46,868 bases of DNA. Origin: Candidatus Thorarchaeota archaeon. Its GTDB lineage: Archaea; Asgardarchaeota; Thorarchaeia; Thorarchaeales; Thorarchaeaceae. The notes below the pieces were generated by a model. It did no database searches. It saw only the letters and a program-made list of their open reading frames with translations, and was not told the DNA's origin. Below are positions 10,604-34,750 of the stretch, in pieces; the stretch's first letter is position 1, and the number at the start of each line of letters is the position of its first letter. The position numbers and the translations under genes are program-made. The stretch lies in NCBI GenBank assembly GCA_048884925.1, contig JBHLQK010000001.1:1-46868 (forward strand), in the 5' to 3' direction.

Positions 10604-10620
10604 TGCAAAGCCTAATTCTA

Positions 10621-12693: not shown

Positions 12694-12856
12694 GATTATT
12701 CCGAACACTCCGGATTTGGTCCTAGTGATGTCACACGACTCTCACACTATGTCTGTGGGGTCAGATATTAAAACCCGCTCTCGTTAGTTGTGAGTGGTCC
12801 TTTTTAACTCTGCCAGAGCTGTGTAGGATTTGTCCGAGTTGTAATTTATGAGGATT

Positions 12857-13417: not shown

Positions 13418-13611
13418 GTACACACTTATCGATTGAGTGGCATACCATAAAGAGCTTGTTCTAGAATACGGAAATATAGTGCTCCTTTTAGTCCAGTAAG
13501 AGTGTTCTATGGTAGAGTAAGGTTATAGCTTCAAGTGAATCGATGCTTCCGGAGAAGCTTTTAAGAGCACTAGAAGATTGTCACCGCAGTCTACGACGGG
13601 ATGGGAATCGA

Positions 13612-16584: not shown

Positions 16585-16600
16585 CTGATGGCCCTCTTAG

Positions 16601-16906
16601 TTATGACTGCCATAGTCCAAACAGATTTCGCAAGGCTCGCGCCCTGTGGTCCTCTATTCGATAGCGGTAGATTTTGATCCGCCCGAACATCTTCTCCTCG
16701 ACTAGACCGGATTCGATAAGCACTTCGAGATGTGATTTGGTCGAGCTATGATTCAAAGAAACTCTCCTGCAGAGTTCGGATATATTCAGCTCGCTGGAAG
16801 TAGCCAGCTCTTTTAGTATCTTGATTCTCCCTCTCGAAGAGAATAGCTCCTCGATTGGCACTCGAAACCTATCATCAGCGTTATTCAAAATCATGAAAAC
16901 CCCCAT
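16601..16906 (-). CDS. small winged-helix (ArsR-like) DNA-binding protein
   Basis: About 101 aa. RGRIKILKEL...LNISELCRRVSLNHSSTKSHLEVLIESGLV is an ArsR/SmtB-type wHTH. Its ATG overlaps the cdc6 stop (TGATG). Confidence 0.7.
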   Translation of the reverse strand: MGVFMILNNADDRFRVPIEELFSSRGRIKILKELATSSELNISELCRRVSLNHSSTKSHLEVLIESGLVEEKMFGRIKIYRYRIEDHRARALRNLFGLWQS

Positions 16907-18099
16907 CAAGTAAGCAAGTCGAGTAGATGCTGTTCTAACATTTCAGCTGGTACATCAGAGAGTCCTATCAGAGTTGTCTGGCCTCTCTGTCCAACACCAG
17001 AACGTTTTGTATCTAGAAGTCCATGAGCATTTAGATCTTGGACCCACTCCCAGACCTGGGTATGAGCCCTTGGCTCTTCGTTGTACTCCTCACATATCGG
17101 ATGATACATCTCTTCGAGCTCGCCCATTGTGATATAGGCACCCCGATTCTCCTTGAGTTGTCTTGCGGCTGCTAGAAGTAGAAGCATGTTCTGTCGTGGA
17201 AGAGCCGCAAACAGCTCCTTCCTCAATTCAGGATGTGTGTCGGCCTTAGCCTTACGGGCATAATCAGGAATCACTTTTCTGGAATTTTCACTGTCAGCCT
17301 GCTTCCCTGCACGCCATAGAAGTTCGATTGCATAACGAGCATCTCCACGTTCTGATGCAATGTCACAGATGAGTTGTAGTGTTTCATCCATGACTACATC
17401 GTGGTCGAATGCAATGTCAGCTCGCCCCTTTAGAATGTCATATAGAGCGTCAGAGGTGTATTGGTCAAACCGGAGAACGTTTCGCTGAAGTGTACTTAAT
17501 GTGCTTTGGTCCAGTATACTCTCATCGAGAGGTATCTTTCTTCCCACTCCTATCACGGAAAGACGCTGAGGCGCATTCAATCGATCATCCATTAGTCGGG
17601 TCAAGTCGTAGAGAATGTCGGCACCTCTCTGTTTAATGAAATAGTCGAGTTCGTCAAGTATTAGTAGAAGATACTTGTCTTCTTCATCAAGTACCTCAAC
17701 AACCATTTGGAGGATTTCTTCCGGTGAGTGACCTCGCCGAGGAAATCTTGGTTTAAACTCCCTCAGCATCCGCAGATACACAAGATAGGTGCTCTTGTTC
17801 ACTCGGCAATTTATGTGCAGATTGTGCAGATTTATGCCCCGTCGGGTTGCTGCTTTTACCATTTGATCCGCGAAACGCTTAGTCACAGCTGTTTTTCCAG
17901 TTCCTACTGGACCTTCAATGATGAACTTCTGACTTGTATGGCCTGGAGAGGCGATTAGTGTCTTGAAACTTTGAGCAAGTGTTCTTAACTCAGGCTCCCG
18001 ATGTGGAAGGGTCTCAGGAACATAATCGATGGAAAGCAATTGCTCCGATTTGAATACACTCTGTCGACTCAGTTCGTCTTCCACATAGTCATGCGTCAT
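16906..18099 (-). CDS. cdc6: Orc1/Cdc6 replication initiator
   Basis: 397 aa. LPHREPEL, Walker A GPVGTGKT, Walker B LILDELD, and a C-terminal winged helix (GRGGQTTLIGL-like RSGVGQRGQTTLIGL). Confidence 0.9.
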   Translation of the reverse strand: MTHDYVEDELSRQSVFKSEQLLSIDYVPETLPHREPELRTLAQSFKTLIASPGHTSQKFIIEGPVGTGKTAVTKRFADQMVKAATRRGINLHNLHINCRVNKSTYLVYLRMLREFKPRFPRRGHSPEEILQMVVEVLDEEDKYLLLILDELDYFIKQRGADILYDLTRLMDDRLNAPQRLSVIGVGRKIPLDESILDQSTLSTLQRNVLRFDQYTSDALYDILKGRADIAFDHDVVMDETLQLICDIASERGDARYAIELLWRAGKQADSENSRKVIPDYARKAKADTHPELRKELFAALPRQNMLLLLAAARQLKENRGAYITMGELEEMYHPICEEYNEEPRAHTQVWEWVQDLNAHGLLDTKRSGVGQRGQTTLIGLSDVPAEMLEQHLLDLLT

Positions 18100-18321: not shown

Positions 18322-18425
18322 TGCGGCCGCCGGGATTATCTCGACAGCCGATAGTCGTCTGCCGATTCGAACCCGGGTTGGAGGCTTGGGAGGCCTCCGT
18401 CCTAACCAAGCTAGACTACGGCCGC
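18322..18425 (-). tRNA. tRNA-Gly (anticodon CCC) with a roughly 30-nt non-canonical intron in or next to the T-loop; CCA not encoded
   Basis: Minus strand reads GCGGCCG TA GTCT AGCTTGGTTA GGAC G GAGGC CTCCCAA GCCTC CAAC CCGGG TTCGAAT [about 30 nt] CCCGG CGGCCGC A. All stems pair once the insertion is removed. Confidence 0.8.
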
Positions 18426-18536
18426 TGAAGGGGTCATCCTTACGGTGCTTGATAAAAGACTATCGGCAAACCGAAATGCTCCAAGTCAATGCTTATCAAG
18501 GACTTATGGAAAAGCCGGCCCTGAGGATTATACTTC

Positions 18537-19673
18537 ATGCCCGGTAATGATTTATCAGTCAATTTCTGGCAGGGGAATCAGGCATGTGCAGAAGCTGCAA
18601 TCGCAGCAGGTTGCAGTTTTTTTGCTGGCTATCCAATTACTCCAGCTTCTGAGATTGCAGAAATAATGGCAGAGAATCTTCCAAGGGTCGGAGGAACGTA
18701 TCTCCAAATGGAGGATGAGATAGGTGCAATCTCGGCAGTGATTGGGGCCTCATGGGGAGGCGCTCTGTCAATGACTGCTACATCGGGTCCTGGTTTCAGT
18801 CTCATGCAAGAGAATATTGGATATGCCATCATGACTGAAACACCATGTGTTATTGTGAATGTCCAACGTGCAGGACCAAGTACGGGACAGGCAACAAAAG
18901 CTGCACAAGGCGATTTTATGCAATCAAGGTGGGGTACGCATGGTGATGTTGAAAGTATAGTATTGTCCCCAAACTCAGCACAGGAAACATTCGAGCTCAC
19001 CTTGCGTGCCTTTCATCTGTCTGAGAAACTTAGACACCCCGTAATCCTTCTTTCGGACGAGGTTGTGGGACACTCTCGGGAGAAAGTAGTTGTGGACACG
19101 TTAGAAGATTTCAAGGTTCGAAGAAGATATGCAAAAGTGGGAATTCCTCCTTTTGGAGGAATCGATGATAGTGGTTGGGTCCAGATGCCAAGATTCGGTA
19201 ATGGCCATAATCTACTAGTCACTGGATCAACACACGACGAATTTGGCTATCGACGAACAGTAGATCCTGTTGTTCATGACAAGCTTGTTCGTAGAATATC
19301 GGCAAAGGTTCAAAATGAACGTGCTATACTTGCAGATGTAGTCGTGTCAGGTGAGGAATCTGCGAAATGGGGCGTCATATCATATGGCTGTACATCAAGG
19401 TCTGTAGAGGAATTGATTGCAAGAAACTCGGGTAACCTCCCGTTGAGATCGTTGCGATTGAGAACTGTATGGCCATTTCCGGATTCTGAGGTAAGAGAAT
19501 TTGCTGAATCGGTTGAACGATTACTAGTACCTGAACTTAGTCTGGGACAACTCTCCAGAGAAGTATCAAGAGTTGTTGGTGATTCCGTAAACGTGGTTTC
19601 ACTCACCAAAATCGGTGGAGGACTTATGATTGAACCGGATGAACTCCTGGAGAAAATCAAATCAGAATCGTAG
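18537..19673 (+). CDS. korA: 2-oxoacid:ferredoxin oxidoreductase alpha subunit (KorA-type)
   Basis: GNQACAEAAIAAGCSFFAGYPITPASEI...MEDEIGA...TSGPGFSLMQENIGYA...VQRAGPSTGQ. The 378-aa length is normal for KorA. Confidence 0.85.
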   Translation: MPGNDLSVNFWQGNQACAEAAIAAGCSFFAGYPITPASEIAEIMAENLPRVGGTYLQMEDEIGAISAVIGASWGGALSMTATSGPGFSLMQENIGYAIMTETPCVIVNVQRAGPSTGQATKAAQGDFMQSRWGTHGDVESIVLSPNSAQETFELTLRAFHLSEKLRHPVILLSDEVVGHSREKVVVDTLEDFKVRRRYAKVGIPPFGGIDDSGWVQMPRFGNGHNLLVTGSTHDEFGYRRTVDPVVHDKLVRRISAKVQNERAILADVVVSGEESAKWGVISYGCTSRSVEELIARNSGNLPLRSLRLRTVWPFPDSEVREFAESVERLLVPELSLGQLSREVSRVVGDSVNVVSLTKIGGGLMIEPDELLEKIKSES

Positions 19674-21409
19674 CCTGTTGAAGAGATTCCTAACGAAGAT
19701 ATAGGACTTGGTGGATTTGGGTTTCCAACAATTATCACTATGCTAGTTCTCATCCAGATGACTATAGGTTTTGAAATGCTAGTTTCTTCGCACCAAGGGC
19801 TGCTTACATACAGATACAGACTGTGTAATCCTGGATGAATGGAGAGGGGGAAAAGGACTTGTATTGAGAAGGTGATATTTACATTGCTGATTGTGACGAA
19901 CGGGGTAGCTGCTGCATCAGCGTAGATTCTCACATCAACGGTTCTGACCCTTTGTCCGCTATCATCTGTTACATTAAAAGCAATCTCAGCCGTTTCTCCA
20001 TAATAGACCAAATCAAATCCTACAGTGACGCTGATGGCCCCATACACAATAATTTCTAGTTCAAGAGGTCCTTGAGCAATGAACGAGCTATCCCTTATTT
20101 CAATGGCTATTGTATGAGGACCCAGTGAAGTATTGTCAGCAATTGGGAAGCTAAGTTCCGTTAGGCTGTTTGCTATAACCGACGTGTTGGCTCCAATCTC
20201 ACCAATGGAGTCTGTGATTGCTATTGGAATCACCTGGCTCTGTAGGAGGGTCGAATTGATACTGATATTCAATGTGTTATTGCTGCCACGTATGGCTGAC
20301 CAAGAAAAATTCGTTGATGAAAGCTGAACAACATAAGGCATCACATCAACTGTGACTAATTCAGTTTCGTTCCGATATAATGGATTAACAGATGTCAGGT
20401 TCACGTTGTAAAGTCCTGGTTCGACATTGAAAGAAATTGACACGCCATAGTGTCCGATGCCGAGGAAGTTCATTATACCGGAAGAAAAGGAAGTTTCCCA
20501 CTGAATTATGCTATCGGATATAGGTTGGCCTCCCCAGGTTGTTTGCTCTACCAGTATGTCTACAGATTCTATTTGACTGCCATCTGGAGTCTGGCAATGA
20601 ACTGAAGATGGTGAAGATAGAACGGTTAGATTTGAGGCAGCCCTTGTTACTTCGATGGGAAAGGATTCGGAAAAAGGAAGAAAATCTTCGGTCCCATTAC
20701 CTTCTACTACAACTGTATAGTCTCCTGGAGGCCCAGTAGTGTCAGTCCAGTTCATCTGAACTTTTCCGCTTGAGGATGTAATCGTATCTGATTGCATTAT
20801 TGAGTCAAGTGTAGAATTGAGGAGAGTAACTGTCACAGGGCGGTTCCCGTATGGAATAGATTGGTTATGCATACTTACGACTTTGAACTCGATCGTAGTA
20901 TTTGTATTGAATTCAATATTCAATGGTGATAATGGCACGACACTGAGGTGGCCTCTTGTTATATTCACGACTATCGTGTCACCCCCACCCTGTGAATAGG
21001 AATCGTAGATTTCAACATTGAAGATGACAAAGGCCTGTGAGCTAATTGGTCCGGGCGAGGTGTCTTCTGGCATGATAGTGTAGGATGAATTGAAATAACG
21101 CACATCATTTGAGGATGAGATAAAATAGCTATTTGAAAATGTAGGACCTTGGTCGGTCACTACTGCAAATGATACATAACACCATCCATCTTCGCCGAAG
21201 TCCGCGATCAACTTAGCCATCATGTTTATTGTTTCACCTACTTCATACACTAGCTTGTCAGTTTCGAAGTAATGAAATTCAAAATAGAAAGCAGAAACGG
21301 GTGTAACCAGACAAAGTGCAATACATGTGCAGACAATAACAGCTACTAGTGTCCTTTGGCTCAAATGACCCACCAAAACTCGGTTCGTATGTTGCCTAAA
21401 AAACAGCAC
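19310..21409 (-). CDS. secreted repeat-rich (Ig-like/Big-like) surface glycoprotein; C-terminal boundary doubtful
   Basis: GTG start and an N-terminal signal/anchor (LVAVIVCTCIALCLVTPVSA). Long beta-rich repeats with about 18-20 N-x-S/T sequons by eye. The last roughly 120 codons are antisense to korA and S/T-rich. Confidence 0.6.
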   Translation of the reverse strand: MLFFRQHTNRVLVGHLSQRTLVAVIVCTCIALCLVTPVSAFYFEFHYFETDKLVYEVGETINMMAKLIADFGEDGWCYVSFAVVTDQGPTFSNSYFISSSNDVRYFNSSYTIMPEDTSPGPISSQAFVIFNVEIYDSYSQGGGDTIVVNITRGHLSVVPLSPLNIEFNTNTTIEFKVVSMHNQSIPYGNRPVTVTLLNSTLDSIMQSDTITSSSGKVQMNWTDTTGPPGDYTVVVEGNGTEDFLPFSESFPIEVTRAASNLTVLSSPSSVHCQTPDGSQIESVDILVEQTTWGGQPISDSIIQWETSFSSGIMNFLGIGHYGVSISFNVEPGLYNVNLTSVNPLYRNETELVTVDVMPYVVQLSSTNFSWSAIRGSNNTLNISINSTLLQSQVIPIAITDSIGEIGANTSVIANSLTELSFPIADNTSLGPHTIAIEIRDSSFIAQGPLELEIIVYGAISVTVGFDLVYYGETAEIAFNVTDDSGQRVRTVDVRIYADAAATPFVTISNVNITFSIQVLFPLSIHPGLHSLYLYVSSPWCEETSISKPIVIWMRTSIVIIVGNPNPPSPISSLGISSTGYDSDLIFSRSSSGSIISPPPILVSETTFTESPTTLDTSLESCPRLSSGTSNRSTDSANSLTSESGNGHTVLNRNDLNGRLPEFLAINSSTDLDVQPYDMTPHFADSSPDTTTSASIARSF

Positions 21410-21481
21410 ACGAATAGAACGACAACTTTAATTCAAGACTTACTGCCAACCAAGCGCCGAAGAGAAGGAGTGTCCTGATTT

Positions 21482-21847
21482 ATGGTAGTCCGACTAAAGA
21501 GTGCTACAGTTGAATCTATTGAAGATACTGAAACAAAGAGGCTGAAAGTTGTCAAGCTAAATGCCAAGGAGGAGGGGGCTCGGATTTCATTGGAACTTCC
21601 GGAGGTCCTATGCGCTACAATGAATCAAAGTAACAAAGTCACTGTTATAATCGATACTAAACCAATCACACGAGGAGACAGTGCCAGACTCTATGCAGAG
21701 GGTAAGGTTTTTCGAATAAGGGATGATGATGGAGTTGAGGTAACTGGTACGGTGGGTGGACTGAGAATGACTCTTGATATTAGTAATCCTACTGCTGCTC
21801 AAAGAAAGACCTTTGATTCCGACAGATTCTTAATAGCCATTATTTGA
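21482..21847 (+). CDS. rpo8: RNA polymerase subunit Rpo8 (RpoG, Rpb8 homologue)
   Basis: 121 aa. YAEGKVFRI...VGGLRMTL...FDSDRFLIAI parallels eukaryotic Rpb8 YGKVYRI...YGGLLMRL...FEVDSRVYLLMK, as recalled from the yeast and human protein. Confidence 0.65.
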   Translation: MVVRLKSATVESIEDTETKRLKVVKLNAKEEGARISLELPEVLCATMNQSNKVTVIIDTKPITRGDSARLYAEGKVFRIRDDDGVEVTGTVGGLRMTLDISNPTAAQRKTFDSDRFLIAII

Positions 21848-22019
21848 AAGGGTGTTTCAATATTCGACCAGAATAGTTTCGGATATCTCTTTCTCAGTCC
21901 AGACCGTTAGTACTCATTGCAAGGAATTAGTAATCTGCTCTATAGAACAACATGCCCTGAAGAACGTACTGAAACCCTCCTGAAATCTAGTTAGGACTGC
22001 AGACCTATGTCTAGTTTGG

Positions 22020-23057
22020 GTGTGGTCTTTGATTGATGAAACATTCGAGGCTATTCAAAACGAGTCTTGGTCCTGTCCTGACTGTTCAGGTCTATTGACA
22101 GCGAACCAGGGCTATATAGTATGTGTAGAATGTGGTTTGGTGATTTCTAGAGAATACGTGTCACCTACCTATCAAATGGGTGAAAAGGTATCTGACAATG
22201 CACCTGAAGCAAGCGTATACGTTTCTCTTGGCAATCGTATGCATATTGTTGATGGACTGGGGAGCTATATTGGCTTTCATAAGGATAGATACTTTCAGGA
22301 TGCACATGGTCAGACTCTCACAGCACGGTCTCAGAAGAAATTCAAGCGGCTTAAGATGATTTACAGCATGCGAATACGGATTGGCAGAAACGAAGCAAAA
22401 TATAGAGCTCTCAGAACACTCAATCATGTTTCAAAGCTGCTTATGTTAAACGAACAAGTCCGTGATCGCACAGCCTATCTCTACAAGAAAATATCCTCTG
22501 AGTCTTCAGAGAAGATTAACAATAACATCCTGCTTGTAGCTGTATGTCTTCTAATGGCTGTGAGAGAGTTCAAGGATGGAGCGCCAATAACCTTGGACGA
22601 GATAGCTAATACCTTCGAAAAATGTGGACATCGTGTGAACGTCAGGGCTATTGTAAGAGAAGCGCTGAAACTCAAATCACTAACAGGTGTTGCTCCTGAG
22701 ATTCGTCGTCCAGAAGACTATGTACCAAGAGTTCTGTCTATGTTGATGAACAGTGAAAAGGTGCTCAAGAAGGTGACAGCTCGTGGATGGAATCTGAAGA
22801 TGTATGAGAATGCTCTCAGAGACAAAATCCTTGAGGTTCTTGATATGATACCGACCTCTAGAAGAGGAGGACGGAATCCATACATATTCACTGTTTCTGC
22901 AGCTTACGCAAGCGACCGTCTAATTGCAGATGATTATGGAAAACGGTCCGTGCTTACTCAGAAGCTCACTTCAGAAGCTACTGAAGTCGCCGAATACAGC
23001 ATTCGAGATCACTTTGGAATGATGAAGAAAGTGATTGCTTTGGCTTCTCCAACATAG
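22020..23057 (+). CDS. divergent transcription factor B (TFIIB-like) paralogue
   Basis: N-terminal zinc ribbon CPDCSG...VCVECG, then two cyclin-like repeats (ALRTLNHVSKLL...AVCLLMAVRE...ITLDEIANTF). GTG start. The B-reader region does not look canonical. Confidence 0.75.
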   Translation: MWSLIDETFEAIQNESWSCPDCSGLLTANQGYIVCVECGLVISREYVSPTYQMGEKVSDNAPEASVYVSLGNRMHIVDGLGSYIGFHKDRYFQDAHGQTLTARSQKKFKRLKMIYSMRIRIGRNEAKYRALRTLNHVSKLLMLNEQVRDRTAYLYKKISSESSEKINNNILLVAVCLLMAVREFKDGAPITLDEIANTFEKCGHRVNVRAIVREALKLKSLTGVAPEIRRPEDYVPRVLSMLMNSEKVLKKVTARGWNLKMYENALRDKILEVLDMIPTSRRGGRNPYIFTVSAAYASDRLIADDYGKRSVLTQKLTSEATEVAEYSIRDHFGMMKKVIALASPT

Positions 23058-23113
23058 AAAAGCAATGTGACAAATTTGGCTTCGATCATACTCCTGAAGG
23101 TGATGATTAGGAA

Positions 23114-24796
23114 ATGCAGGAAGATAGGCTAAGAGTGATTAGATGTCCGGACACAAGGTGCGTGGAGTGTTCTGAACTGGCTGCTCAAGATTGCTCGAAA
23201 CTCTCCTTACAACCAAGAAAGGGGACAAAGGCGAAGGTAATTATTTTGGAATCTTCCAGAAGCTTTCTTCATCTTGGAGGATTGTCAGGTTGCACCCCAA
23301 CTAGACCGCCATGGAAAGGAGAAGGGTGGGAATCGGTTTATATTGGCAATCAAGAAGAGTTCCCGGATAAGAATTGGTGTCCTGTAGATATCTACTTGGT
23401 TGGACCGTATCTTTCGCTTTACTTCTCAATGGCGAGTGGTAATGAAATCTTTCACAGGTCGTATCCACTAGTGAGAACTTCGCTCGAGTATGGATTGCTG
23501 CAGAAACTAAGTGAATCAATTGAGAGTGAACTTCAGAAAAAGCTAGGAATAAGGACAAGTATTTCTGAACGACTTCAGCAGATATCGGACAGTATTTGCA
23601 AGGACATCTTGAGGTCGTTACCCGAGATAAATGAAGTGACGCGTGAAAGAATATCTAGACTCGTGGCAAACAGAACAACTGTTCTAGATCCAATTCTTCC
23701 AATTCTGCTAGATGATGATGTGGAAGAGGTATATGTAGACCGTCCAAGAAAGCCCGTCTATTTTGACCACTGTAGGTTAGGAAGATGCATTTCAGAATAC
23801 GAGCTTCGACAGGATGAGGTTCCTCGTTTCACAACACTCCTTCGGGCAGAGAGTAACCTTCATCTCGATAGGAAGAATCCTTCTCTCAAAACTGACTTGA
23901 AACTATTTGATATGAACCTACGAATTTCAGCCAGCTTGCCACCGCTCAGTCCGGATGGTTTGCACTTGGAGATTCGACGGGCTCGGAAGAAACCATTTAC
24001 AATTCTCGACTTAATATGCAATGATACATTAACAACTGAAGCTGCAGCTGCACTTCTTCTAGCATTGGGTTTTAGGTTCAACATAACGGTAACAGGAGGA
24101 CCTGGAACCGGTAAAACTACTTTGTTGAATGCACTTGACTTGGATAGTCCTAAAACTTGGAGAAAAATCTACATCGAAGATGCAGTAGAAAGCAGAGATC
24201 TTAAGAATCATCATCAAGTTCGCTTCAAGGTCGATCCTTTTGATGAGATAGAAAGCCACTTTGACAAATCCGCAGAGATTGTTAAGACTCTCCATAGATC
24301 ACCGGATTATCTTATTCTTGGTGAGATTCAAACTGCGGAACATAGTCAAGCACTTTTCCAAGCTATTGCCGCTGGACTTCGTGCGATGCAGACTTGTCAT
24401 AGCTATTCTGCAGCTAGTCTTGTTTCTCGTTGGACCACAGGACATGGAATTGATAAATCAAGTATGGCAATGATGGACTTGATTGTGACAATGGTGCGCC
24501 CGGTACCTGGAGAATCTACTAGGCGTGTCAGTGAGATTGTTGAAGTGCGGCGCACTGTTTCGGAAGGGGTTCTGAGGTTTACTGGACTTAATACAGTCTA
24601 CGACTATCATTCCTCTCAGAATTTGAAATGGGCACCTGATGGCGCGTATCTCTCGTACGCAAGAGAAATTGGACATGAGAATCATTTCCAAGCTTATAAT
24701 GCATTAGTTGATTTCTTGACTCATAAATTAGAAACTTCAGTGGAAACTGGCCATGATTTGGGAAGGGAAATTTGGTCGCAGGTATATCCGTTGTGA
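23114..24796 (+). CDS. type II/IV secretion-family ATPase (archaeal PilB/FlaI/TadA/VirB11 clade)
   Basis: Walker A GGPGTGKTT, Asp box IYIEDAVE, Walker B PDYLILGEIQTAE, His box TCHS. It carries about 250 aa of N-terminal extension with a Cys cluster (CPDTRCVEC). Confidence 0.8.
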   Translation: MQEDRLRVIRCPDTRCVECSELAAQDCSKLSLQPRKGTKAKVIILESSRSFLHLGGLSGCTPTRPPWKGEGWESVYIGNQEEFPDKNWCPVDIYLVGPYLSLYFSMASGNEIFHRSYPLVRTSLEYGLLQKLSESIESELQKKLGIRTSISERLQQISDSICKDILRSLPEINEVTRERISRLVANRTTVLDPILPILLDDDVEEVYVDRPRKPVYFDHCRLGRCISEYELRQDEVPRFTTLLRAESNLHLDRKNPSLKTDLKLFDMNLRISASLPPLSPDGLHLEIRRARKKPFTILDLICNDTLTTEAAAALLLALGFRFNITVTGGPGTGKTTLLNALDLDSPKTWRKIYIEDAVESRDLKNHHQVRFKVDPFDEIESHFDKSAEIVKTLHRSPDYLILGEIQTAEHSQALFQAIAAGLRAMQTCHSYSAASLVSRWTTGHGIDKSSMAMMDLIVTMVRPVPGESTRRVSEIVEVRRTVSEGVLRFTGLNTVYDYHSSQNLKWAPDGAYLSYAREIGHENHFQAYNALVDFLTHKLETSVETGHDLGREIWSQVYPL

Positions 24797-24887
24797 TTTG
24801 CAGGAGCTTGGATTTTTGCCTGACTTTTCACTCAATTTGAGGGCAGTTAAAATACCATACTATAGACAGGTAATCAGGTGGAAATTC

Positions 24888-25082
24888 ATGCATGACCCGA
24901 TAAGGGATGAACAGGGTGGCCCATTAGTTGAAGAGAGTCTCTTACTTGGCATTGCTGTGGTTACTGTGTCAATAGTCATTGCTGTTATACTGCAGGCAAC
25001 AGGTTGGGCACAGGATGTAGTAGCTGGGCTTTTTCAGATCCTTGAAGACAGTTGGAGCAGCTTAACGAGTTTGTTTCCATAA
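24888..25082 (+). CDS. Flp-like type IV pilin precursor (class III signal peptide), 64 aa
   Basis: MHDPIRDEQGG/PLVEESLLLGIAVVTVSIVIAVIL resembles the Flp motif (K/R)DE.G / ATAIEYGLI, with Glu at +5 after the predicted cleavage. AGGTGG lies 7 nt upstream of the ATG at 24888. The upstream part of track ORF 24753 overlaps the ATPase and was discarded. Confidence 0.55.
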   Translation: MHDPIRDEQGGPLVEESLLLGIAVVTVSIVIAVILQATGWAQDVVAGLFQILEDSWSSLTSLFP

Positions 25083-25178
25083 TGATTTAGTGACATTGGC
25101 AGGTTTTAAACCAAGAATTGGGGAAACCCTTATTTGCAGTCTGGAATGAGCACAACCGCTCCGGACTGGTGCGCCCTA

Positions 25179-25285
25179 GCTCCGGTAGATGCCTCATGAA
25201 ACCATGATGCAACCGTATGTAGTCCGGCCCAGCATGAGGGACTCTCGATCCCTCGACCCGGGTTCAAATCCCGGCCGGAGCACCA
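25179..25285 (+). tRNA. tRNA-Glu (anticodon CTC) with a roughly 29-nt non-canonical intron in the D-arm region, CCA encoded
   Basis: GCTCCGG TA G[about 29 nt]TGT AGTCCGGCCCA GCAT G AGGGA CTCTCGA TCCCT CGAC CCGGG TTCAAAT CCCGG CCGGAGC A CCA. The inserted segment folds as TGC-C-TCATG AAAC CATGA-T-GCA. The exact splice points are ambiguous by 1-2 nt. Confidence 0.8.
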
Positions 25286-25295
25286 AATTCTATTG

Positions 25296-27260
25296 TCATC
25301 CTACCAAACGTCTTCTCAATAGGATTGGTACGCTAGCAAGAGAAACTGACACTCCTAGGCTGAGTACAATAATCGGGATTCCCACTCCTTGAGAGGCCAT
25401 TGCTTCTGTTTTGGTGATGATGATAGTGTGATACCCAGTAGAAGAATGTATGAATGTGGATTCTTCTGTTTCATAATAGAGGCTATACACACCTGATGCT
25501 AGGGGAATGCGAAGTCCCAATTCGACAATGCCAAACTCTTGACTGATTGCAAAGCTTCTGTAATTTAGCCATTCATAGTGTAGCTTCACACTTTCTAGGG
25601 GAGTACCATTTAATGCTATGATAGACAATCGAACTGCAATTTCTTGGATGGCTGTAGAAACGGAATAGCTAACAAGTTTCACACTCACTGGTATTATCCT
25701 GCTAACAATAATTTCATATTCTAAACATATTGGCAACTCGTATTCCAATATGCTGCCGTTGTAGCTTATGATCAATAAGTAAGAGCCCTCCATTGATGGA
25801 AGTCCGAATGTTTCCTCTGCAACACCATTGTTGTTTGTTACCGAACTAGTCACTAGATAATCTCCAATTTGCCATTCAATTAGTCGGTCTGGCATCTGAA
25901 TTCCACTTGCATTGAGCTGAATTTGGAATGTCACATCTTGGGAAGGCGAGGCATATCCAAGTATGCTCTTATAAAGCATGAAAAGATGTGGTTTGCACCA
26001 AACTGTCACTAAGATTGTTCTTGTTGTGTTTGTCAGAAAAGAGTTCTCTGAAGCCATAATCCGCAGATTTCTGGGTCCAAGAGAACCAGTGAAGGTCATA
26101 TGAGAGATGGCAGTAGTCTGTCCAAGAGAAAAGGAGATTAAATGTGACTCTTGAGTTAGTTCATCGAGTATTGTAATGACAGCATTTGGAATCGGTCTCT
26201 GGAAGAGATCATGGAGTACTACATGTACTTCCGTTTCAACTCCTGTTTGAACAGAATCAGGAAACGCGACATGAATTAATGCAGGACTTATCACGGCTAG
26301 CTCAAGTTCAAGGTATGAAGATGCATAGCGAAAGGATCCTGCATAGTCTATCTTTAGAGTGTGCGTCCCGAGTACATACCGGGAGTCAATTTCTAGAATC
26401 AGATTAACTAGACCATTTCCGTCACTCACAGGTGCATCTATCAGGCTTTCATCAATGAATACGAGAAGTGATGCATTAGAATGATTTTCACCCTCGGCTT
26501 GAATTATAATCTGCATGGAGAAGGAATCATTCAAATGAACTTCGGAGTCGTAGGAGCCCAGAATTTCAAGAGATGTTGTAATGCGATGAACATTGACTGC
26601 TATAAAACTCGCTGAACTGTTAAGAAAGCGTCCCAAGTCTTGGTCAAATGTCACTCTTAATGTGTTTTCACCAATTGTACACCACGAAATATTACAGTTT
26701 ATGATAAAAGTTGCATAGCCGCTGGCATTAGTTGAACCAACTGATAGAAGAGTGCTATCACTATAAACAGCTATTGAAGCACCAACAATGGAAACATTAT
26801 GATCATCTACAATCTTAGCTGTTAGAGTAATCTCATCATCTGGATGAATTGCGTACTCATCAACTTGGACCTCAATAGATGTTCGAGAAACAACGATAAC
26901 AGATAACCATTGATAAGAAGGGGATAAAGAAAGAGAGATATTACCTTCGAAAGTCACATTTAGTAAGGATATACCTAAGGGATGATTAATCGAAACATTC
27001 CATTGCACCATTGCATAGCCGTTAGAGTCTGTAATTGCAGACCCTATGAAAGCATCCTGAGTCTGATCATAGAAAAGAAGAGGCTGGTTCAGTACCGGAT
27101 CTCCAAAGGTGCCGTTCTGAAGGAGCCTTGCAGTGATAGGTATCAATTCTCCTCGTATTACGACAGGAATTTCCTCAGCAGATGCAAAGTCTGTAGTTGT
27201 GCTAGATATGAAGAACAGTGCCATGAACATTATGACTAATCCGGTGCAGACTCGCTTCAA
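25296..27260 (-). CDS. surface glycoprotein with Ig-like/Big-like repeats, signal peptide and C-terminal TM anchor
   Basis: TTG start. Signal peptide MKRVCTGLVIMFMALFFISSTTTDFASA. Repeats of the form P(I/L).NA.(I/V)...TDSNGYA. About 15 N-x-S/T sequons by eye. C-terminal GVGIPIIVLSLGVSVSLASVPILLRRRLVG. Confidence 0.7.
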   Translation of the reverse strand: MKRVCTGLVIMFMALFFISSTTTDFASAEEIPVVIRGELIPITARLLQNGTFGDPVLNQPLLFYDQTQDAFIGSAITDSNGYAMVQWNVSINHPLGISLLNVTFEGNISLSLSPSYQWLSVIVVSRTSIEVQVDEYAIHPDDEITLTAKIVDDHNVSIVGASIAVYSDSTLLSVGSTNASGYATFIINCNISWCTIGENTLRVTFDQDLGRFLNSSASFIAVNVHRITTSLEILGSYDSEVHLNDSFSMQIIIQAEGENHSNASLLVFIDESLIDAPVSDGNGLVNLILEIDSRYVLGTHTLKIDYAGSFRYASSYLELELAVISPALIHVAFPDSVQTGVETEVHVVLHDLFQRPIPNAVITILDELTQESHLISFSLGQTTAISHMTFTGSLGPRNLRIMASENSFLTNTTRTILVTVWCKPHLFMLYKSILGYASPSQDVTFQIQLNASGIQMPDRLIEWQIGDYLVTSSVTNNNGVAEETFGLPSMEGSYLLIISYNGSILEYELPICLEYEIIVSRIIPVSVKLVSYSVSTAIQEIAVRLSIIALNGTPLESVKLHYEWLNYRSFAISQEFGIVELGLRIPLASGVYSLYYETEESTFIHSSTGYHTIIITKTEAMASQGVGIPIIVLSLGVSVSLASVPILLRRRLVG

Positions 27261-27489
27261 ATACAGTCACCTCATGATGTAGCATTGGGACTATTCTCTG
27301 TAATGATTATACAGAAACGTCATGCATAATCAATTCTGAGTTCTCTCATGAGTCTGCATTCTTGTTTTTAATCTCCTATCGAATAGCCAGATTCTGGGGG
27401 AGTTCATATGCAATTGTAAATCATCAAGGGTGGACTGTGGTGTCATTAGAGGCATTCACAGAGTTCTGACTCCAAACGGGTGATGATGC

Positions 27490-30400
27490 ATGTCCAGCCA
27501 TGTATTGAGCGAGAGAGGCCGATTTAGAGTACCACCCAGAAAGAACAATCTGAGGTTATGGAAATGGATTGAGTTGGGGTGGCTGTTTGGTATTGCTGTC
27601 ATGTTGATTTACTTTGTAGTAGTCTACCTACTTCCACTATTAGGACTAATTGGTCCAGTTTCAATTCCTTCCAAGCTAATCATCGAAATAGTAATTTCAA
27701 TATACCCGGTCTTGATGAGCGGGCTCGTGGCTCGGGGGAAGCTTACTTCCGATGAGGTGTTGAAAGCTGTCCTAGATGATGACTTAGTATCAATACGTAT
27801 AGGAGATTATGTAGTTGCAACATGCTGTCTTGAAATCATCTCTGCTCCTGGATCAGTGCTCGTTGCTAGAAACGACCGACCAGAGTATGCAACTGCATTC
27901 CTTCTTGCTCTTCGTGCAGGAATGGGTGAAAGAGTCAGTATGGCATACGAAGTGGGTGTATTTGGTGGTGAAGCGTTTCTACGGATTTTTATAACTGGGT
28001 CAGGTAGGAATATGGAAGAGGTAGGAGGCACTCTTAGGCGTGAAGCAACCCGAACTGAGGCTATTCTGCTTTCCTCTCTAAATAACGTGGAACTCCATCA
28101 GCTAACAGGGGAAAATTTGAGAGATGCTGTTTCTGGGATTCTCTCAATTGACTTGGAAGGTGGTTCAAAACAATCGTCTGAAGAAATGCATACTGGATTA
28201 TTACTGATTACTGGAGAACCGCGTGTAGAGCCTAGTCTGGAGAGTTCTCAAATTGGGACGTTCATCTCTACTTCGCTTCGCCAGGGATACAATGTGAGTT
28301 TCACATGTGTATTTTCAAAGTCAAAGCCTGGACGTGAACAGAGAAGATTGGAGGGCCAATGGAAAACAATACGCGAGAAGGAAAAGAAGAATGAAGACTC
28401 CTTGGCAGACCAATCAGAAAAAAAGAAGCTGCTGCGTGATTATGAGGAGATACAGGGAAATATCGGCTGGTTTGATTCCTCAGTTTCTCTTGCCATAAGA
28501 GCAGACAGTCGTGGTCAGCTCTCAAGCATTCAAGAAGGTGTATCTGGGATTGTTCATTCAATATGGGGAGGAGAAGGCAATCTCACCTTGAAAAAGAAAG
28601 ATATTGGAAGGAGTGTGATCTACAAACTCCTTCTTAGACGCCACATTGTATCACGGAAAATTCATGTCAGTAGATTGGTAGCTTTCTTGAATACACCAGT
28701 TCAGCAGTTACCAGTTATTGCTGCACCGCCTGTGCCTACGTTTTCCATACCATCAAGAGAAATTGTGAATAACGAGCTCATAATCGGAAAGGCTGTCTTT
28801 GGAGGCAGCCGTCTGAATGATGTTGGTCTCAGACCTGAATGGCTCCGAGAACATATTGCAGTGTTGGGAGCCACCGGTACAGGCAAGACTACTCTTGTGA
28901 AGCATCTCATTGCCGAACTGAGTATAAAGTCAAATGTTCCATGGTGGATATTTGATGTAAAGGGATCTGAATACCATGAATTGGTGAACCTATGTGATGA
29001 GGTTCTTCTGCTGAGGCCTGGGGTGGACCAATCGTTCATAATTGATTTTATGGACCCAGAGATTGATTCTGGCGAAAGGCATGCACATTCAACCTTTAAA
29101 ATCCTGAAAGAACTGCTTAACGAAAGAGGGGTATCTTCAGAGCTTTCACCTGCCATGGAAAAGCTTCTTCGTGAGGCGGTTTCAGAGGTCGCACGTACTT
29201 CAGACAGGGGCAATTCAATTCAAGCACTTATTCATGCAGTATCAGAACTTGCAGGAAAAGACCGTACTGGTATTATGACCAAGGATGCGCTCCTTAATCG
29301 TCTGGAGATACTTTCACAAGAACCGCTTGGGACTATTCTGAGTGGTGGTCAAGAAGCCATAAGGATTTCAAATCTTATGGACAGACGAGTCATTCTGGAT
29401 TTGCAGTATGTTGCTAGAACAGGAGGAATGGAAGCAGCTCGTTTACTCTATAATCTCATTGCAAAACGTATCTTTGATTGTGCACTGAACCGAGGTATAA
29501 AACTCGGGCTTCATCATCTAGTGGTACTCGAGGAGGCTAGTAATCTTGTACCTGAGAGTTATACTAGGCACACAGCTGCAGATGTCACAACCGGAGAATC
29601 TATGGTGATGCTCCAAAGAGCCACTGGACAAGGTGTTATCGTAATATCAACTCGACCGAATGTGTCTTCAAACATTTTGGCAAACACTGCTACGAAGATT
29701 ACTTTCCGTCTTCCCTATGATAGCCCAATCGGGGCGAAATTCATGTCCCTTGACGAAAAACAAGAGCGTTATTTGAAGACACTAAAACGTGGAAGAGCGC
29801 TAATTGTTTTGCCCGGGACGGAACCGTTCGAGATTGCCACTTGGCCATTTGAGATAGCATCCATCTCAAAGATGCCAATTGAAGCTGTAACTCATGATAA
29901 GACTGCGATTGAAGCTGAATTGGAAGAAAGTCGAGAAGTTTCTCTTGAATATGATGTAGCTGTTCGGTCGGAAAGTAATAAGTCATCCAAGCCAGTAGGA
30001 GCAATGTATGACAGGCTAGGAGAGCTAGGATCGCATATTGTGGCCTTTCTTGCCACTAGGAGTATGGGAACTCAAGCTGAAATCCAAGGGATTTTGACAT
30101 CAATCGATCCTAGGATAGAAAGTGATGACATAAGTGAGGTAATTCGAGACTTGGTTTCCTTGGGAACGATTGAAAGAGAGGCACTGTCACTTGTGCCGGG
30201 TGATTTCATATTTACTCTGCCTGGTAGAGGACTTGATGCGGTAAGAACGGCAATTACTGACTATATTATCGAGAAGCTAGGACTGCTTGATATCACGTGG
30301 GAACGTAATTTAGATGGAGGACCTGATATAATTCTTGATGATAGAGCCCTTTTGATACTCCCTCAGCATCTCAAAGCATCATCAATGAAAACAACTCTAG

Positions 30401-31281
30401 CTAAAATTAGGAATTACATGGGCAAATTAGGAAATAATGTAATCGAGCTGATTGTGATTGTCAGAGGAAGTGTTGCAGCAGCTAAGCTTAGAGAAGTCAT
30501 GGATGAAACAAACGAGTTTGATGCAGTTAGCATAGTTTCAGCATTTCCAAGTTCACTGAATACAATGATTGAGAGCTTAGCAACGGGCACATCAACAAAT
30601 GTGGACTTGACAACTGACGATGATATGAATAGAGATGAAGAACAAGGAATCAAGCTCATTGGTGCCATGCACGACGTTGGGACTGCAACTAACCGTGCTA
30701 TACAGATGCGACTATGGTTTCAGCTGATTCAGGATTTCGTGGATTTATCCAATGGTAGAATCGAATGGAATGTCTTGCTAGAGTTCATCGAAACGACGGC
30801 TCTACAGTCACTCAAGGGTAAAACTACTCCAATGAGTGCTGAAGAGGGGAAACGTGCATTGACAGAACTTCTAGCTGATGAAGTCCTGATGGCACTTCGT
30901 GTTGGGAATGATTTTGATTTCATCGATTTGAACGAAGGACTCTGGATTGTGAACTCAGGCGAACTGGGAAAACTAAAGGATTCGGCTGTTGATGCTCTGG
31001 AGAAAGAGCTACGAAAGCAACAGAGTCCGGTTTCCCGCAATCATGGTTATTATGACCTTTGCACAAATGGTGTTTCGTATGTTGTATTTCCAAATCAGCA
31101 GCAGCTAAATACGTTACTCCATCTTCAGAATGAAATTGCATGCAGAACATGTAAGTCAGGACGGGTTGTCTGTGTGTTGACAGCGGCCGAGTATCTTGAG
31201 GATAGTGTAATCATGCCGGAAAACATCCTTCTTTATGACTTCTCAGAGTATGTTTCTGTGGCTAGTACAGCAGGACATTAA
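27490..31281 (+). CDS. 1263-aa membrane-anchored FtsK-HerA-superfamily ATPase (HerA/VirB4-like core) with winged-helix-containing C-terminal extension
   Basis: Two to three N-terminal TM helices (residues about 25-80). Walker A VLGATGTGKTT (DNA about 28861-28893), Walker B HHLVVLEEASNLVPE (about 29515-29560), and an STRP...ITFRL arginine-finger region as in HerA/DUF87. The C-terminal roughly 470 aa includes IVAFLATRSMGTQAEIQGIL...LVSLGTIERE (wH-like). Confidence 0.75.
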   Translation: MSSHVLSERGRFRVPPRKNNLRLWKWIELGWLFGIAVMLIYFVVVYLLPLLGLIGPVSIPSKLIIEIVISIYPVLMSGLVARGKLTSDEVLKAVLDDDLVSIRIGDYVVATCCLEIISAPGSVLVARNDRPEYATAFLLALRAGMGERVSMAYEVGVFGGEAFLRIFITGSGRNMEEVGGTLRREATRTEAILLSSLNNVELHQLTGENLRDAVSGILSIDLEGGSKQSSEEMHTGLLLITGEPRVEPSLESSQIGTFISTSLRQGYNVSFTCVFSKSKPGREQRRLEGQWKTIREKEKKNEDSLADQSEKKKLLRDYEEIQGNIGWFDSSVSLAIRADSRGQLSSIQEGVSGIVHSIWGGEGNLTLKKKDIGRSVIYKLLLRRHIVSRKIHVSRLVAFLNTPVQQLPVIAAPPVPTFSIPSREIVNNELIIGKAVFGGSRLNDVGLRPEWLREHIAVLGATGTGKTTLVKHLIAELSIKSNVPWWIFDVKGSEYHELVNLCDEVLLLRPGVDQSFIIDFMDPEIDSGERHAHSTFKILKELLNERGVSSELSPAMEKLLREAVSEVARTSDRGNSIQALIHAVSELAGKDRTGIMTKDALLNRLEILSQEPLGTILSGGQEAIRISNLMDRRVILDLQYVARTGGMEAARLLYNLIAKRIFDCALNRGIKLGLHHLVVLEEASNLVPESYTRHTAADVTTGESMVMLQRATGQGVIVISTRPNVSSNILANTATKITFRLPYDSPIGAKFMSLDEKQERYLKTLKRGRALIVLPGTEPFEIATWPFEIASISKMPIEAVTHDKTAIEAELEESREVSLEYDVAVRSESNKSSKPVGAMYDRLGELGSHIVAFLATRSMGTQAEIQGILTSIDPRIESDDISEVIRDLVSLGTIEREALSLVPGDFIFTLPGRGLDAVRTAITDYIIEKLGLLDITWERNLDGGPDIILDDRALLILPQHLKASSMKTTLAKIRNYMGKLGNNVIELIVIVRGSVAAAKLREVMDETNEFDAVSIVSAFPSSLNTMIESLATGTSTNVDLTTDDDMNRDEEQGIKLIGAMHDVGTATNRAIQMRLWFQLIQDFVDLSNGRIEWNVLLEFIETTALQSLKGKTTPMSAEEGKRALTELLADEVLMALRVGNDFDFIDLNEGLWIVNSGELGKLKDSAVDALEKELRKQQSPVSRNHGYYDLCTNGVSYVVFPNQQQLNTLLHLQNEIACRTCKSGRVVCVLTAAEYLEDSVIMPENILLYDFSEYVSVASTAGH

Positions 31282-34456: not shown

Positions 34457-34501
34457 GGACCTTAAATCCCTATTAATGAGAATATTTAATGTGTGAAATC
34501 A

Positions 34502-34750
34502 ATGCCAGCAGTTCTACTTAGTCCGTTGGCTGACTTTGCCAGCCTGATAGCCGGGTATTTTGTGGAAATATGGGACTTTCTGATTTTCATAGGTGGAGTT
34601 TCAGCAGTGATTGTCGTCCTTGCGGGAGCAATTCTATGGTTCACAGAGATAAACTCGAAACGTGGTAAGGGTCTAGTGATGAGTGGAATACTTCTTGCAA
34701 TAATCGTACAATATTTTGTCACCTATCCTCCTGTCTTCGGAATTGGTTAG
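34502..34750 (+). CDS. small two-helix membrane protein (VirB2/TrbC-like hairpin topology, speculative)
   Basis: 82 aa. Two long hydrophobic helices (FLIFIGGVSAVIVVLAGAILWF and LVMSGILLAIIVQYFV) joined by the basic loop SKRGKG. The antisense track ORF 34486-34722 was rejected. Confidence 0.5.
   Translation: MPAVLLSPLADFASLIAGYFVEIWDFLIFIGGVSAVIVVLAGAILWFTEINSKRGKGLVMSGILLAIIVQYFVTYPPVFGIG

Follow-up and report, generated by a model that had tools for sequence, protein, structure and literature searches.

In Sulfolobales, the Ups locus encodes UpsX, a protein with multiple immunoglobulin (Ig) folds, together with the ATPase UpsE, the platform protein UpsF, and pilins (bioRxiv 10.64898/2026.04.22.720090). 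The Ced system combines the transmembrane-anchored VirB4/HerA-like ATPases CedB/CedD with the two-transmembrane-helix proteins CedA1/CedA2, and TFB3 co-regulates Ups and Ced (PMC9905601, PMC11868833). The Ted system of Thermoproteales (TedA/TedB/TedC) is a chromosomal, domesticated derivative of a type IV secretion system (T4SS), with a VirB4-like ATPase, a small helical protein (TedC, a VirB2-like pilin), and components that are sometimes split between loci. We found no work linking Asgard archaea to VirB4-, Ced-, or Ted-like systems in a literature search, and a 2026 census reported type IV filament (TFF) systems to be largely missing from Asgard archaea, or undetected in them, by ordered searches (bioRxiv 10.64898/2026.04.22.720090). 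Here we describe a gene block of an Asgard archaeon that resembles these systems in composition. It lies at positions 19310 to 31281 of contig JBHLQK010000001.1 from a Candidatus Thorarchaeota metagenome-assembled genome (MAG; assembly GCA_048884925.1); the window analyzed here is that entire contig of 46,868 bp. A membrane-anchored VirB4-like ATPase and a type-IV-pilus-like gene set, with a TFB paralog and a small membrane protein gene (pep85) farther downstream, are its main constituents.

Our preferred reading, which we hold with moderate confidence as a whole, is that the block specifies a vertically inherited, chromosomally fixed envelope machine of Asgard archaea, made up of a VirB4-like module, a type-IV-pilus-like module, and a TFB regulator. 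The first module would descend from type IV secretion systems, or be a relative of them, and would consist of the VirB4-like ATPase and pep85. The second would be of the type-IV-pilus/Tad kind, with a CpaF/GspE-like ATPase, a Flp-like pilin, and an Ig-repeat glycoprotein, to which other Asgard loci add a platform-like protein (Helarchaeota, Odinarchaeota, and Baldrarchaeota) and a prepilin peptidase (one “Asgardarchaeia” MAG). The original prediction, which grouped an ATPase of the pilus type and a membrane-bound one of the VirB4/HerA type with small pilin-like proteins and surface proteins in a single system, is upheld in its core by the recurrence of these genes in other lineages (see below). 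The features in question, drawn from an open reading frame (ORF) listing and Pfam and NCBIfam scans of the window proteins, are present at or very near where the prediction had placed them:

19310-21409, minus strand: Ig-like, sequon-rich secreted protein, 699 aa (Ig699; sub-threshold Ig-like Pfam matches)
21482-21847, plus strand: Rpo8/RpoG-like RNA polymerase subunit (Pfam RNA_pol_RpbG E 1.5e-4, below the cut-off)
22020-23057, plus strand: divergent TFB paralog, 345 aa, Zn ribbon and cyclin repeat (Pfam, NCBIfam)
23114-24796, plus strand: T2SSE-family ATPase, 560 aa, CpaF/TadA/archaeal GspE type, with a Cys-rich N-terminus (Pfam T2SSE)
24888-25082, plus strand: Flp-like, class-III-signal-like small protein, 64 aa, one transmembrane helix (conserved motif and transmembrane helix)
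25179-25285, plus strand: tRNA-Glu(CUC) with a 28-nt noncanonical intron, CCA encoded (Rfam, ARAGORN)
25296-27260, minus strand: Ig-repeat, sequon-rich surface protein, 654 aa, with a signal peptide and a C-terminal transmembrane anchor (Ig654; Pfam, transmembrane scan)
27490-31281, plus strand: membrane-anchored VirB4-like P-loop ATPase, 1263 aa (Pfam DUF87, AlphaFold2/Foldseek, transmembrane scan)
34502-34750, plus strand: pep85, an 82-aa two-helix membrane hairpin protein (AlphaFold2 model, homologs)

The 1263-aa protein contains a P-loop domain (about residues 430 to 790; Pfam DUF87, 57 bits) in which the Walker A motif GATGTGKT and the Walker B LEE motif are invariant in 43 homologs. Two N-terminal transmembrane helices (about residues 35 to 53 and 63 to 81) were located by a hydropathy scan, and this segment is analogous to VirB3-VirB4 fusions. 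An AlphaFold2 (AF2) model of residues 64 to 1263, built with 43 sequences, reached a pLDDT of 70 and a pTM of 0.37. In a Foldseek search of this model against the PDB, TrwK/VirB4 of plasmid R388 ranked first (8rtd and 7o41 to 7o43, E 1e-17 to 1e-11), followed by HerA (4d2i) at 8.5e-10 and by TrwB and Cag-beta at about 1e-6, while no FtsK entry appeared in the top 50. The alignments with TrwK/VirB4 extend over 800 to 850 columns against targets of 750 to 810 residues; the tool reports no residue ranges, and it is from this length against full-length TrwK that the N-domain must be included, so that a VirB4-type N-domain may precede the ATPase domain in the modeled protein. The isolated C-terminal domain of VirB4 (4ag6_B) superposes best, with a TM-score of 0.68 and a root-mean-square deviation (rmsd) of 4.9. 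As modeled, the 1263-aa protein is thus VirB4-like and not a HerA-NurA helicase. The grouping with cytosolic HerA-NurA enzymes that would have counted against the prediction was not seen: the model matches VirB4 first, family scans found no NurA in the window, and in the “Asgardarchaeia” locus (L022) an ordinary HerA of 491 aa is paired with NurA separately, 4 kb away from the VirB4-like family member (L022 positions 4215-6874 and 9412-12970).

A C-terminal extension of about 480 aa follows the motor domain, and the secondary structure of the model (DSSP) shows in it the pattern winged helix (wH), small alpha/beta unit, wH, Cys cluster. The extension is highly conserved in Thorarchaeota and, in an exhaustive profile-free search, confined to a few Thorarchaeota-level clusters, while relatives at 25 to 35% identity share the N-domain and the ATPase domain only. 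Of the description “membrane-anchored HerA/VirB4-like ATPase with wH domains,” the anchor and the VirB4 likeness therefore stand, and the wH domains are a secondary-structure pattern of the model only. All ATPase relatives with a named source are Asgard archaea (Thor-, Sif-, Hel-, Loki-, Hod-, Ran-, Njord-, Odin-, Baldr-, and Atabeyarchaea, and entries named “Asgard” or Promethearchaeota); Helarchaeota carry two or more paralogs per genome, and the NCBI label of the homologs is “ATP-binding protein.” A wH protein of about 330 aa (MarR/HTH_45-like) is encoded convergently right after the ATPase gene and partly overlapping it at locus L016 (positions 13577-14575), as well as at L018 to L020, L012, L014, and L015. 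Homology of the C-terminal extension to this protein of Baldrarchaeota (332 aa, MarR-like) was considered and dropped, as BLASTP found nothing.

We compared the neighborhoods of ATPase homologs across Asgard archaea. Beyond the long contigs of a Thorarchaeote (L001) and a Sifarchaeon (L002), a scan of species-representative genomes with a 7-sequence alignment yielded 12 loci from Helarchaeota, Atabeyarchaeum, Odinarchaeota, and Baldrarchaeota; 8 further loci came from contig look-ups, and the locus ORFs were searched and clustered against the window proteins. The loci named below are from Helarchaeota (L004, L006, L007, L009, and L010), Odinarchaeota (L013), Baldrarchaeota or Baldr-type archaea (L014/L015 and L016 to L020), Lokiarchaeota (L021), and the “Asgardarchaeia” MAG (L022). 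Beside ATPase homologs, or within 10 kb of them, we found the TFB paralog, the CpaF/GspE-like ATPase, the Flp-like protein, Ig654-type proteins, a platform-like protein, and a prepilin peptidase. In L004 and L007, between which the surrounding gene order is rearranged, the gene immediately preceding that of the ATPase is a specific ortholog of the TFB paralog (247 to 256 bits, compared with 59 bits for the window protein on the canonical TFB model); orthologs of the T2SSE ATPase (207 to 213 bits) lie within 8 kb of the ATPase homolog in the same two loci, and the Flp-like gene within 2.3 kb in L004. The intervening housekeeping genes are korA, IPK, S10, and GlmS in Thorarchaeota; a radical SAM gene, EF-2, and ribosomal L2 in Helarchaeota; NrdD/G, V-ATPase B, and AroM in Odinarchaeota and Baldrarchaeota; and L16, GPN, and HerA-NurA in L022. 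With flanking genes that vary from lineage to lineage, the recurrence of the set cannot be put down simply to a single stretch of unchanged synteny. The co-conservation in relatives that had been proposed as a check is thus borne out in Helarchaeota, Odinarchaeota, Baldrarchaeota, and the “Asgardarchaeia” MAG, in otherwise different contexts.

The pep85 gene, distant from the ATPase gene in the window, adjoins it elsewhere: a homolog lies directly upstream on the same strand, with a gap of about 50 to 70 bp, in Odinarchaeota (L013), in Baldrarchaeota (L014/L015), and in L012 and L016 to L020. The suggestion that components of the system can be split off is borne out by this pair. The AF2 model of pep85 is a confident hairpin (helices 2 to 47 and 52 to 74, pLDDT 86.6), and 628 homologs were found, which are 66 to 93% identical across Thorarchaeota and about 30 to 37% identical to the group from Odinarchaeota and Baldrarchaeota; NCBI labels the window peptide “hypothetical protein.” There is no detectable signal peptide, and the two-transmembrane topology is CedA1-like. 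The “VirB2-like two-helix peptide” of the original prediction is a real protein and a two-helix hairpin, with no significant structural or profile match to VirB2; because no significant match to conjugative or Ced/Ted pilins was obtained, “VirB2-like” refers to topology and gene position only. For the proposed check on a pilin-like fold, this hairpin counts neither for nor against the prediction. We regard pep85 as a candidate small partner of the ATPase, in a VirB2/CedA1-like or, equally possible, a VirB3-like role. Two candidates for an equivalent in Helarchaeota were rejected: a three-transmembrane protein of 77 to 89 aa encoded between the Ig-like and T2SSE genes (hhalign probability 2%) and a fusion of pep85 to the longer N-termini of Helarchaeota ATPases, with four to five transmembrane helices (hmmsearch --max found nothing).

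The pilus-type ATPase belongs to the T2SSE family (PF00437, 66.2 bits versus a cut-off of 24.9), with NCBIfam matches to the TadA family (E 3e-26) and FlaI (1e-22). Among solved relatives in the PDB it matches afGspE at 3.5e-23, CpaF at 5e-19, FlaI at 2e-12, and VirB11 at 5e-5. By sequence similarity it is nearest to archaeal GspE and CpaF, then to FlaI, and far from VirB11. Its Cys-rich N-terminus (C-x5-C-x2-C ... C, window 23114-23220) is common to the Helarchaeota orthologs, and the Thorarchaeota proteins carry an extra Pfam family, PF27713 (UCP018868), in precomputed annotation. The Flp-like protein, whose most likely start at 24888 gives 64 aa, has the motif GGPLVEESLLLG, that is, G-(G/S)-P-x-x-E-E-x-L-L-x-G, followed by a single transmembrane helix; the motif is conserved in Thorarchaeota, Sifarchaeia, and Helarchaeota (L004, L010), and no Pfam or NCBIfam family matched the protein. 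A 503-aa protein with about seven transmembrane helices is encoded 4 bp downstream of the T2SSE gene in Helarchaeota L007, and this platform-like family (about 490 to 503 aa; T2SSF 16.9 bits, below the cut-off of 25.2) follows the Ig-like gene in Odinarchaeota and Baldrarchaeota. In L022, a Peptidase_A24 gene (31.2 bits, cut-off 26.5) lies 89 bp upstream of the ATPase homolog; this is the only locus in which such a peptidase was found.

Both Ig-like proteins have sub-threshold Pfam matches (MG2/Big_1/Big_3_5; Big_3_5/Big_1 in the case of Ig654) and are enriched about two- to threefold in N-x-S/T sequons over shuffles of their own sequences, with 20 sequons versus 9.5±2.6 in the 699-aa protein and 15 versus 5.4±2.0 in the 654-aa protein. 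They had been described as two paralogous, sequon-rich Ig-repeat surface proteins; the sequons and the Ig likeness are confirmed, and the paralogy is weakly true, the similarity between the two being marginal (BLASTP E 0.002 over 76 aa). The Ig654 gene is divergent from the VirB4-like gene across a 229-bp spacer, and its family occurs beside or near the ATPase in Thorarchaeota, Sifarchaeia, Helarchaeota (L004, L007, L009, and, directly beside it, L010), and Odinarchaeota (L013). In Thorarchaeota and Sifarchaeia the 699-aa family belongs to the syntenic block; no member turned up close to the ATPase in the remaining lineages, and the membership of this family in the system is uncertain for this reason. 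Unlike Ig654, the 699-aa protein has no C-terminal transmembrane anchor. The 3′ 363 bp of its ORF (19310 to 19673) overlap the 3′ end of the convergent korA, and the Sifarchaeia ortholog ends about 145 codons earlier. This S/T/P-rich extension is common to L001 but lies antisense to the conserved korA, and it is therefore doubtfully coding.

The block had been called accessory-looking, a view that our comparisons do not support. Gene order is common to the Thorarchaeote L001 and the Sifarchaeon L002, at about 55 to 60% protein identity, and runs through korA, Ig699, Rpo8, the TFB-like gene, the T2SSE gene, the Flp-like gene, Ig654, the ATPase gene, IPK, S10, GlmS, pep85, an aminotransferase gene, and onward. 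Full-length orthologs of both ATPases, the large one and the T2SSE one, fall in more than 100 clusters each at 50 to 94% identity (52 to 94% for the large ATPase), and those with a named source come from Thorarchaeota, Promethearchaeota, or Sifarchaeia. In GC content, third-position GC content (GC3), and codon usage, the block genes stay inside the range seen in the flanking genes, as judged from a GC profile and from GC3 values and codon-usage distances per gene, and the comparison of 19.3 to 31.3 kb with its flanks that had been suggested, once run, showed no deviation. A direct-repeat search returned just three short, imperfect, chance-like two-copy matches, with no att-like repeats in the block, and family scans of the window found no integrase or transposase domain, in agreement with the earlier statement that integrase, transposase, and repeat boundaries were not seen. 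A reading of the block as a mobile island was tried and rejected, since none of these analyses showed anything island-like. Because the gene order is conserved, the composition equals that of the flanks, and att-like repeats are absent, the block is a stable, syntenic core region with housekeeping genes, not an accessory one.

The product of 22020-23057 scores just above threshold for the Pfam TFIIB repeat (23.7 versus 23.6 bits) and below it for Zn_Ribbon_TF (22.1 bits, cut-off 29) and for the NCBIfam TFB model PRK00423 (E 4.9e-16, 58.7 bits versus a cut-off of 384); judged by these scores it is a divergent TFB paralog and not a canonical TFB. In L001 there is an 8-bp overlap between its gene and the T2SSE gene. 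Encoded inside the cluster, it is likely to be a dedicated transcription factor of these genes. Folds and families, membrane anchoring, co-localization across classes, and the nonmobile core status of the block are shown by the data; we infer that the parts interact physically, form a filament, and act on a macromolecular substrate, and a mechanism can be proposed by analogy with Ups, Ced, and TFB3. The TFB paralog would turn the cluster genes on; the pilus and glycoprotein module would bring about cell-cell or cell-surface contact; and the VirB4-like ATPase, as a hexamer held in the membrane by its own two helices, would drive the assembly of pep85 into a conduit or filament. The same ATPase would drive the passage of a macromolecule, most plausibly DNA, and in Thorarchaeota the tail with its predicted wH units and Cys cluster would handle that DNA. 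It is the Ced/Ted precedent and this tail that make DNA the favored substrate.

The resemblance to the Sulfolobales machinery is the closest. Shared with Ups, Ced, and TFB3 are a pilus module that combines a T2SSE ATPase with a platform-like protein, small pilin-like proteins, and a multi-Ig protein; a transmembrane-anchored VirB4/HerA-like ATPase with a two-transmembrane small protein; a TFB paralog; and a chromosomal, nonmobile location. Since the composition is the same, a coupled machine for contact and translocation is favored, and the Asgard gene set may be the counterpart of the Sulfolobus DNA-exchange system. There are also differences. The CedD and CedB models are not matched at their cut-offs, and no CedA/VirB6-like channel turned up in the window or next to homologs; the Asgard TFB paralog is full-length and encoded inside the cluster; the Thorarchaeota ATPase carries the extra C-terminal region of about 480 aa; and the lineages are Asgard and Thermoproteota. 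With Ted, the Asgard genes share the features listed at the outset, the likeness of pep85 to a VirB2-like pilin being one of topology, while no TedA/VirB6 homolog and no ParA/VirC1, Rad50, or HerA neighbors were found in the window, and pep85 lacks a detectable signal peptide and similarity to the solved TedC/VirB2 pilins. It is more tentatively, and with considerable doubt, that we extend the comparison to an Asgard-wide system that would join Ced and Ted as a third, so far undescribed case of T4SS-like machinery domesticated on the chromosome for DNA exchange, in which an Asgard-specific membrane VirB4-like family and an 82-aa hairpin pilin or conduit protein would be coupled, physically and in regulation, to an Ups-like pilus/Ig-glycoprotein module under its own TFB paralog.

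Other families share part of the set. The bacterial T4SS supplies the best structural match of the modeled ATPase, over both the N- and the C-domain of TrwK, and has parallels for a small two-helix protein gene just upstream (virB2/virB3-virB4) and for a nearby T2SSE-family ATPase (VirB11); it differs in that TIGR00929 is not matched at its cut-off, the nearby ATPase is closer to CpaF/GspE, VirB6/8/9/10, VirD4, and a relaxase are missing, and the Asgard genes are not on a mobile element. Tad/Flp and archaeal type IV filaments have a CpaF/TadA-like ATPase and a Flp-sized protein with a G/xxxxE-type motif, and their platform and A24 peptidase have likely counterparts in other Asgard loci; different from them, the Thorarchaeota contig has neither, and pilin and platform fall below Pfam thresholds. 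HerA-NurA and FtsK/SpoIIIE are, like the 1263-aa protein, members of the FtsK-HerA P-loop superfamily (DUF87), and FtsK has a comparable layout of transmembrane segment, motor, and wH, but the NurA partner is missing, HerA ranks below VirB4, FtsK is outside the top 50, and the curated models are not matched.

Several results weigh against the two-module envelope machine. The ATPase is far below every curated VirB4, CedB, CedD, and HerA model: its best match is the NCBIfam CedD model NF053655 (E 2.7e-12, 46.1 bits versus a cut-off of 600; 60.3 bits for the L012 homolog), with 19.2 bits versus 700 for CedB (NF041017), 17 bits versus 800 for HerA (NF040937), and 17.4 to 20.4 bits versus 643 for VirB4_CagE (TIGR00929; window ATPase and relatives). 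Taken together, the CedB, VirB4, and HerA models give the window protein 16 to 29 bits, and relatives from other lineages likewise fail the curated models. A sequence search of the PDB found nothing with the single sequence and, with a profile, weak HerA-type matches around Walker A alone. TM-scores to full-length VirB4 are low (0.24 to 0.35, rmsd 14 Å) because the relative placement of domains in the model is uncertain (pTM 0.37). No significant similarity of pep85 to VirB2, TraA, CedA1, or TedC was found by PDB profile search (one chance match, E 3.2) or Foldseek (generic helical hairpins only, E ≥ 2), and pep85 was not found in the Helarchaeota loci. In family and transmembrane scans, the 46.9-kb Thorarchaeota contig yielded neither a platform protein nor a prepilin peptidase. 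A VirB6/CedA-like multipass channel, a relaxase, a coupling protein, and a nuclease are likewise missing from what was found in the window and around homologs. Finally, some housekeeping synteny is shared among Asgard lineages (GPN, a UPF0020 methyltransferase, and PF01877 in L022; Cdc6/RFC in Lokiarchaeota L021), so part of the co-localization could be inherited gene order and not selection, and the Ig-like and platform genes of Odinarchaeota and Baldrarchaeota are 6 to 10 kb from the ATPase gene, with housekeeping genes between.

We weighed three alternatives, taken here in descending order of confidence. The first, which we think rather unlikely though the strongest of the three, keeps the modules and moves no DNA: the machine would be a surface filament or adhesin, or would export protein, with the ATPase extracting pep85 for a conjugative-type pilus or helping to display the Ig glycoproteins, for attachment to syntrophic partners or surfaces. 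The tightest links of the ATPase gene are indeed to surface proteins, Ig654 being divergent from it and the same family standing beside it in L010, and the missing relaxase, nuclease, coupling protein, and VirB6-like channel are as this explanation would have them. Bacterial VirB4 is itself a pilin-extraction and pilus-assembly ATPase. T4SSs are also described as secreting proteins (PMC12857230). The conserved Thorarchaeota extension, with its two predicted wH units and Cys cluster, hints instead at nucleic-acid binding, and Ced and Ted, the sole characterized archaeal chromosomal VirB4-like systems, move DNA.

We consider it improbable that the ATPase is an FtsK-like chromosome pump for division or segregation whose neighbors reflect retained gene order, with no pilus/VirB4 system at all. 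The transmembrane helices, FtsK-HerA motor, and C-terminal wH-like units do mimic the transmembrane, motor, and gamma domains of FtsK; the gene is 9 to 19 kb from Orc1/Cdc6, RFC, GINS, and MCM, as a Lokiarchaeota homolog is 7 kb from Cdc6 and RFC; it keeps the same position in conserved housekeeping synteny in Thorarchaeota and Sifarchaeia; and some housekeeping synteny is common to Asgard lineages. The model, however, finds VirB4 first, N-domain included, and no FtsK within the Foldseek top 50, and Pfam FtsK_SpoIIIE (PF01580) reaches 17.7 bits against a cut-off of 24. The wH-containing region is specific to Thorarchaeota and absent from the rest of the family, Helarchaeota have several paralogs per genome, and a pump would leave aside the operon-like pairing of pep85 with the ATPase and the recurrence of the A24 peptidase, TFB paralog, and Ig-like genes beside it in rearranged contexts. 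Very improbable, in our view, is an anti-virus HerA-type defense component, or a decayed integrated conjugative or viral element. Weak NCBIfam HerA_antiphage matches (29 to 42 bits), PHROG matches to a family of unknown function and to terminase, a match of the TFB-like protein to phrog_20431 (E 1e-17), and two tRNA genes in or near the block would fit such an origin. They stand against an ATPase that is membrane anchored, GC, GC3, and codon usage equal to the flanks, a window without Sir2, DUF4297, a nuclease partner, integrase, or att-like repeats, and a position and order kept between the Thorarchaeote and the Sifarchaeon.

Cell contact, recognition, and exchange are poorly known in Asgard archaea, while close contact between cells is a requirement of eukaryogenesis models, and an exchange of genes has been put forward as a precursor of sex. 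The two-module envelope machine offers a defined, widely conserved gene set (ATPase, pep85, CpaF-like ATPase, Flp-like pilin, Ig glycoprotein, and TFB paralog) as concrete targets in cultured Asgard strains. If it transfers DNA, domesticated conjugation-like machinery would span from Thermoproteota to the sister lineage of eukaryotes, and this would be the second case of a TFB paralog dedicated to such a system. As a third exchange system, it would place pilus-mediated, mating-like DNA exchange, or another cell-cell transfer of macromolecules, in the archaeal ancestry of eukaryotes. If it is an adhesion or filament machine only, it would still be an undescribed, Asgard-specific surface structure.

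Rpo8 and the intron-containing tRNA-Glu, which had been counted with the block, exist as predicted; beyond Thorarchaeota and Sifarchaeia, no ATPase locus has either of them nearby, and they are therefore bystanders and not parts of the system. Rpo8 is conserved at this locus in L001 and L002 only and is absent near the ATPase elsewhere; the subunit is general in Asgard archaea (PMC13257274). Rfam places the tRNA at 25209-25282 (35.6 bits) with a mispaired acceptor stem and a wrong 5′ end, the true 5′ end being at 25179. The 28-nt intron (about 25189 to 25216) has a noncanonical position in the D-arm region, and a short repeat leaves about 4 nt of ambiguity in its boundaries. ARAGORN calls tRNA-Glu(ctc) only once the intron has been removed in silico.

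A G-rich plus TATA element, TGRGG-N3/4-TTAAAW, is present upstream of the Flp-like, VirB4-like, and pep85 genes (24840-24860, 27393-27410, and 34452-34468) and conserved in L001 and L002. As a system-specific promoter motif it was rejected: the window has 3 hits, where 1.4 would be expected, and shuffling gives at least 3 in 19 of 100 trials. It is probably a generic TFB-recognition element (BRE)/TATA pair, because similar GAGG..TATA elements precede several housekeeping genes (HD, korA, HypF, and p342).

Among the neighboring genes in the window is a replication-gene island at 8348-18099, with Hel308, MCM, GINS, the small and large RFC subunits, TruA, a winged helix-turn-helix protein (102 aa, 16601-16909), and Orc1/Cdc6, followed by tRNA-Gly(CCC) at 18352-18426; the Thorarchaeota block may lie near a replication origin. 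In Lokiarchaeota L021, Cdc6, an HTH_20 protein, and RFC are within 7 kb of the ATPase homolog. A B12-binding radical SAM protein (513 to 515 aa), absent from the window, is encoded beside the ATPase homolog in L004 and L006; in L021 its gene lies about 1.5 kb upstream of the homolog. In L022, an 87-aa protein with three to four predicted transmembrane helices and a 147-aa protein with an N-terminal one are encoded just before the family member, on the other strand. A distant ATPase homolog (L023) is followed after 88 bp by a 237-aa protein with six transmembrane helices and no significant family match (L023 positions 13253-13966), which might be a candidate channel partner of CedA/VirB6 size. 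The left end of the contig (window 1-1306) encodes a 315-aa Roadblock/LC7 protein and a partial 302-aa family member, and the same two families occur with a Ras/Arf-like GTPase inside the Ig-like/T2SSE cluster of Helarchaeota (L004 9677-12225 and L009 3533-6010), a set that resembles the MglA/MglB polarity module steering bacterial type IV pili.

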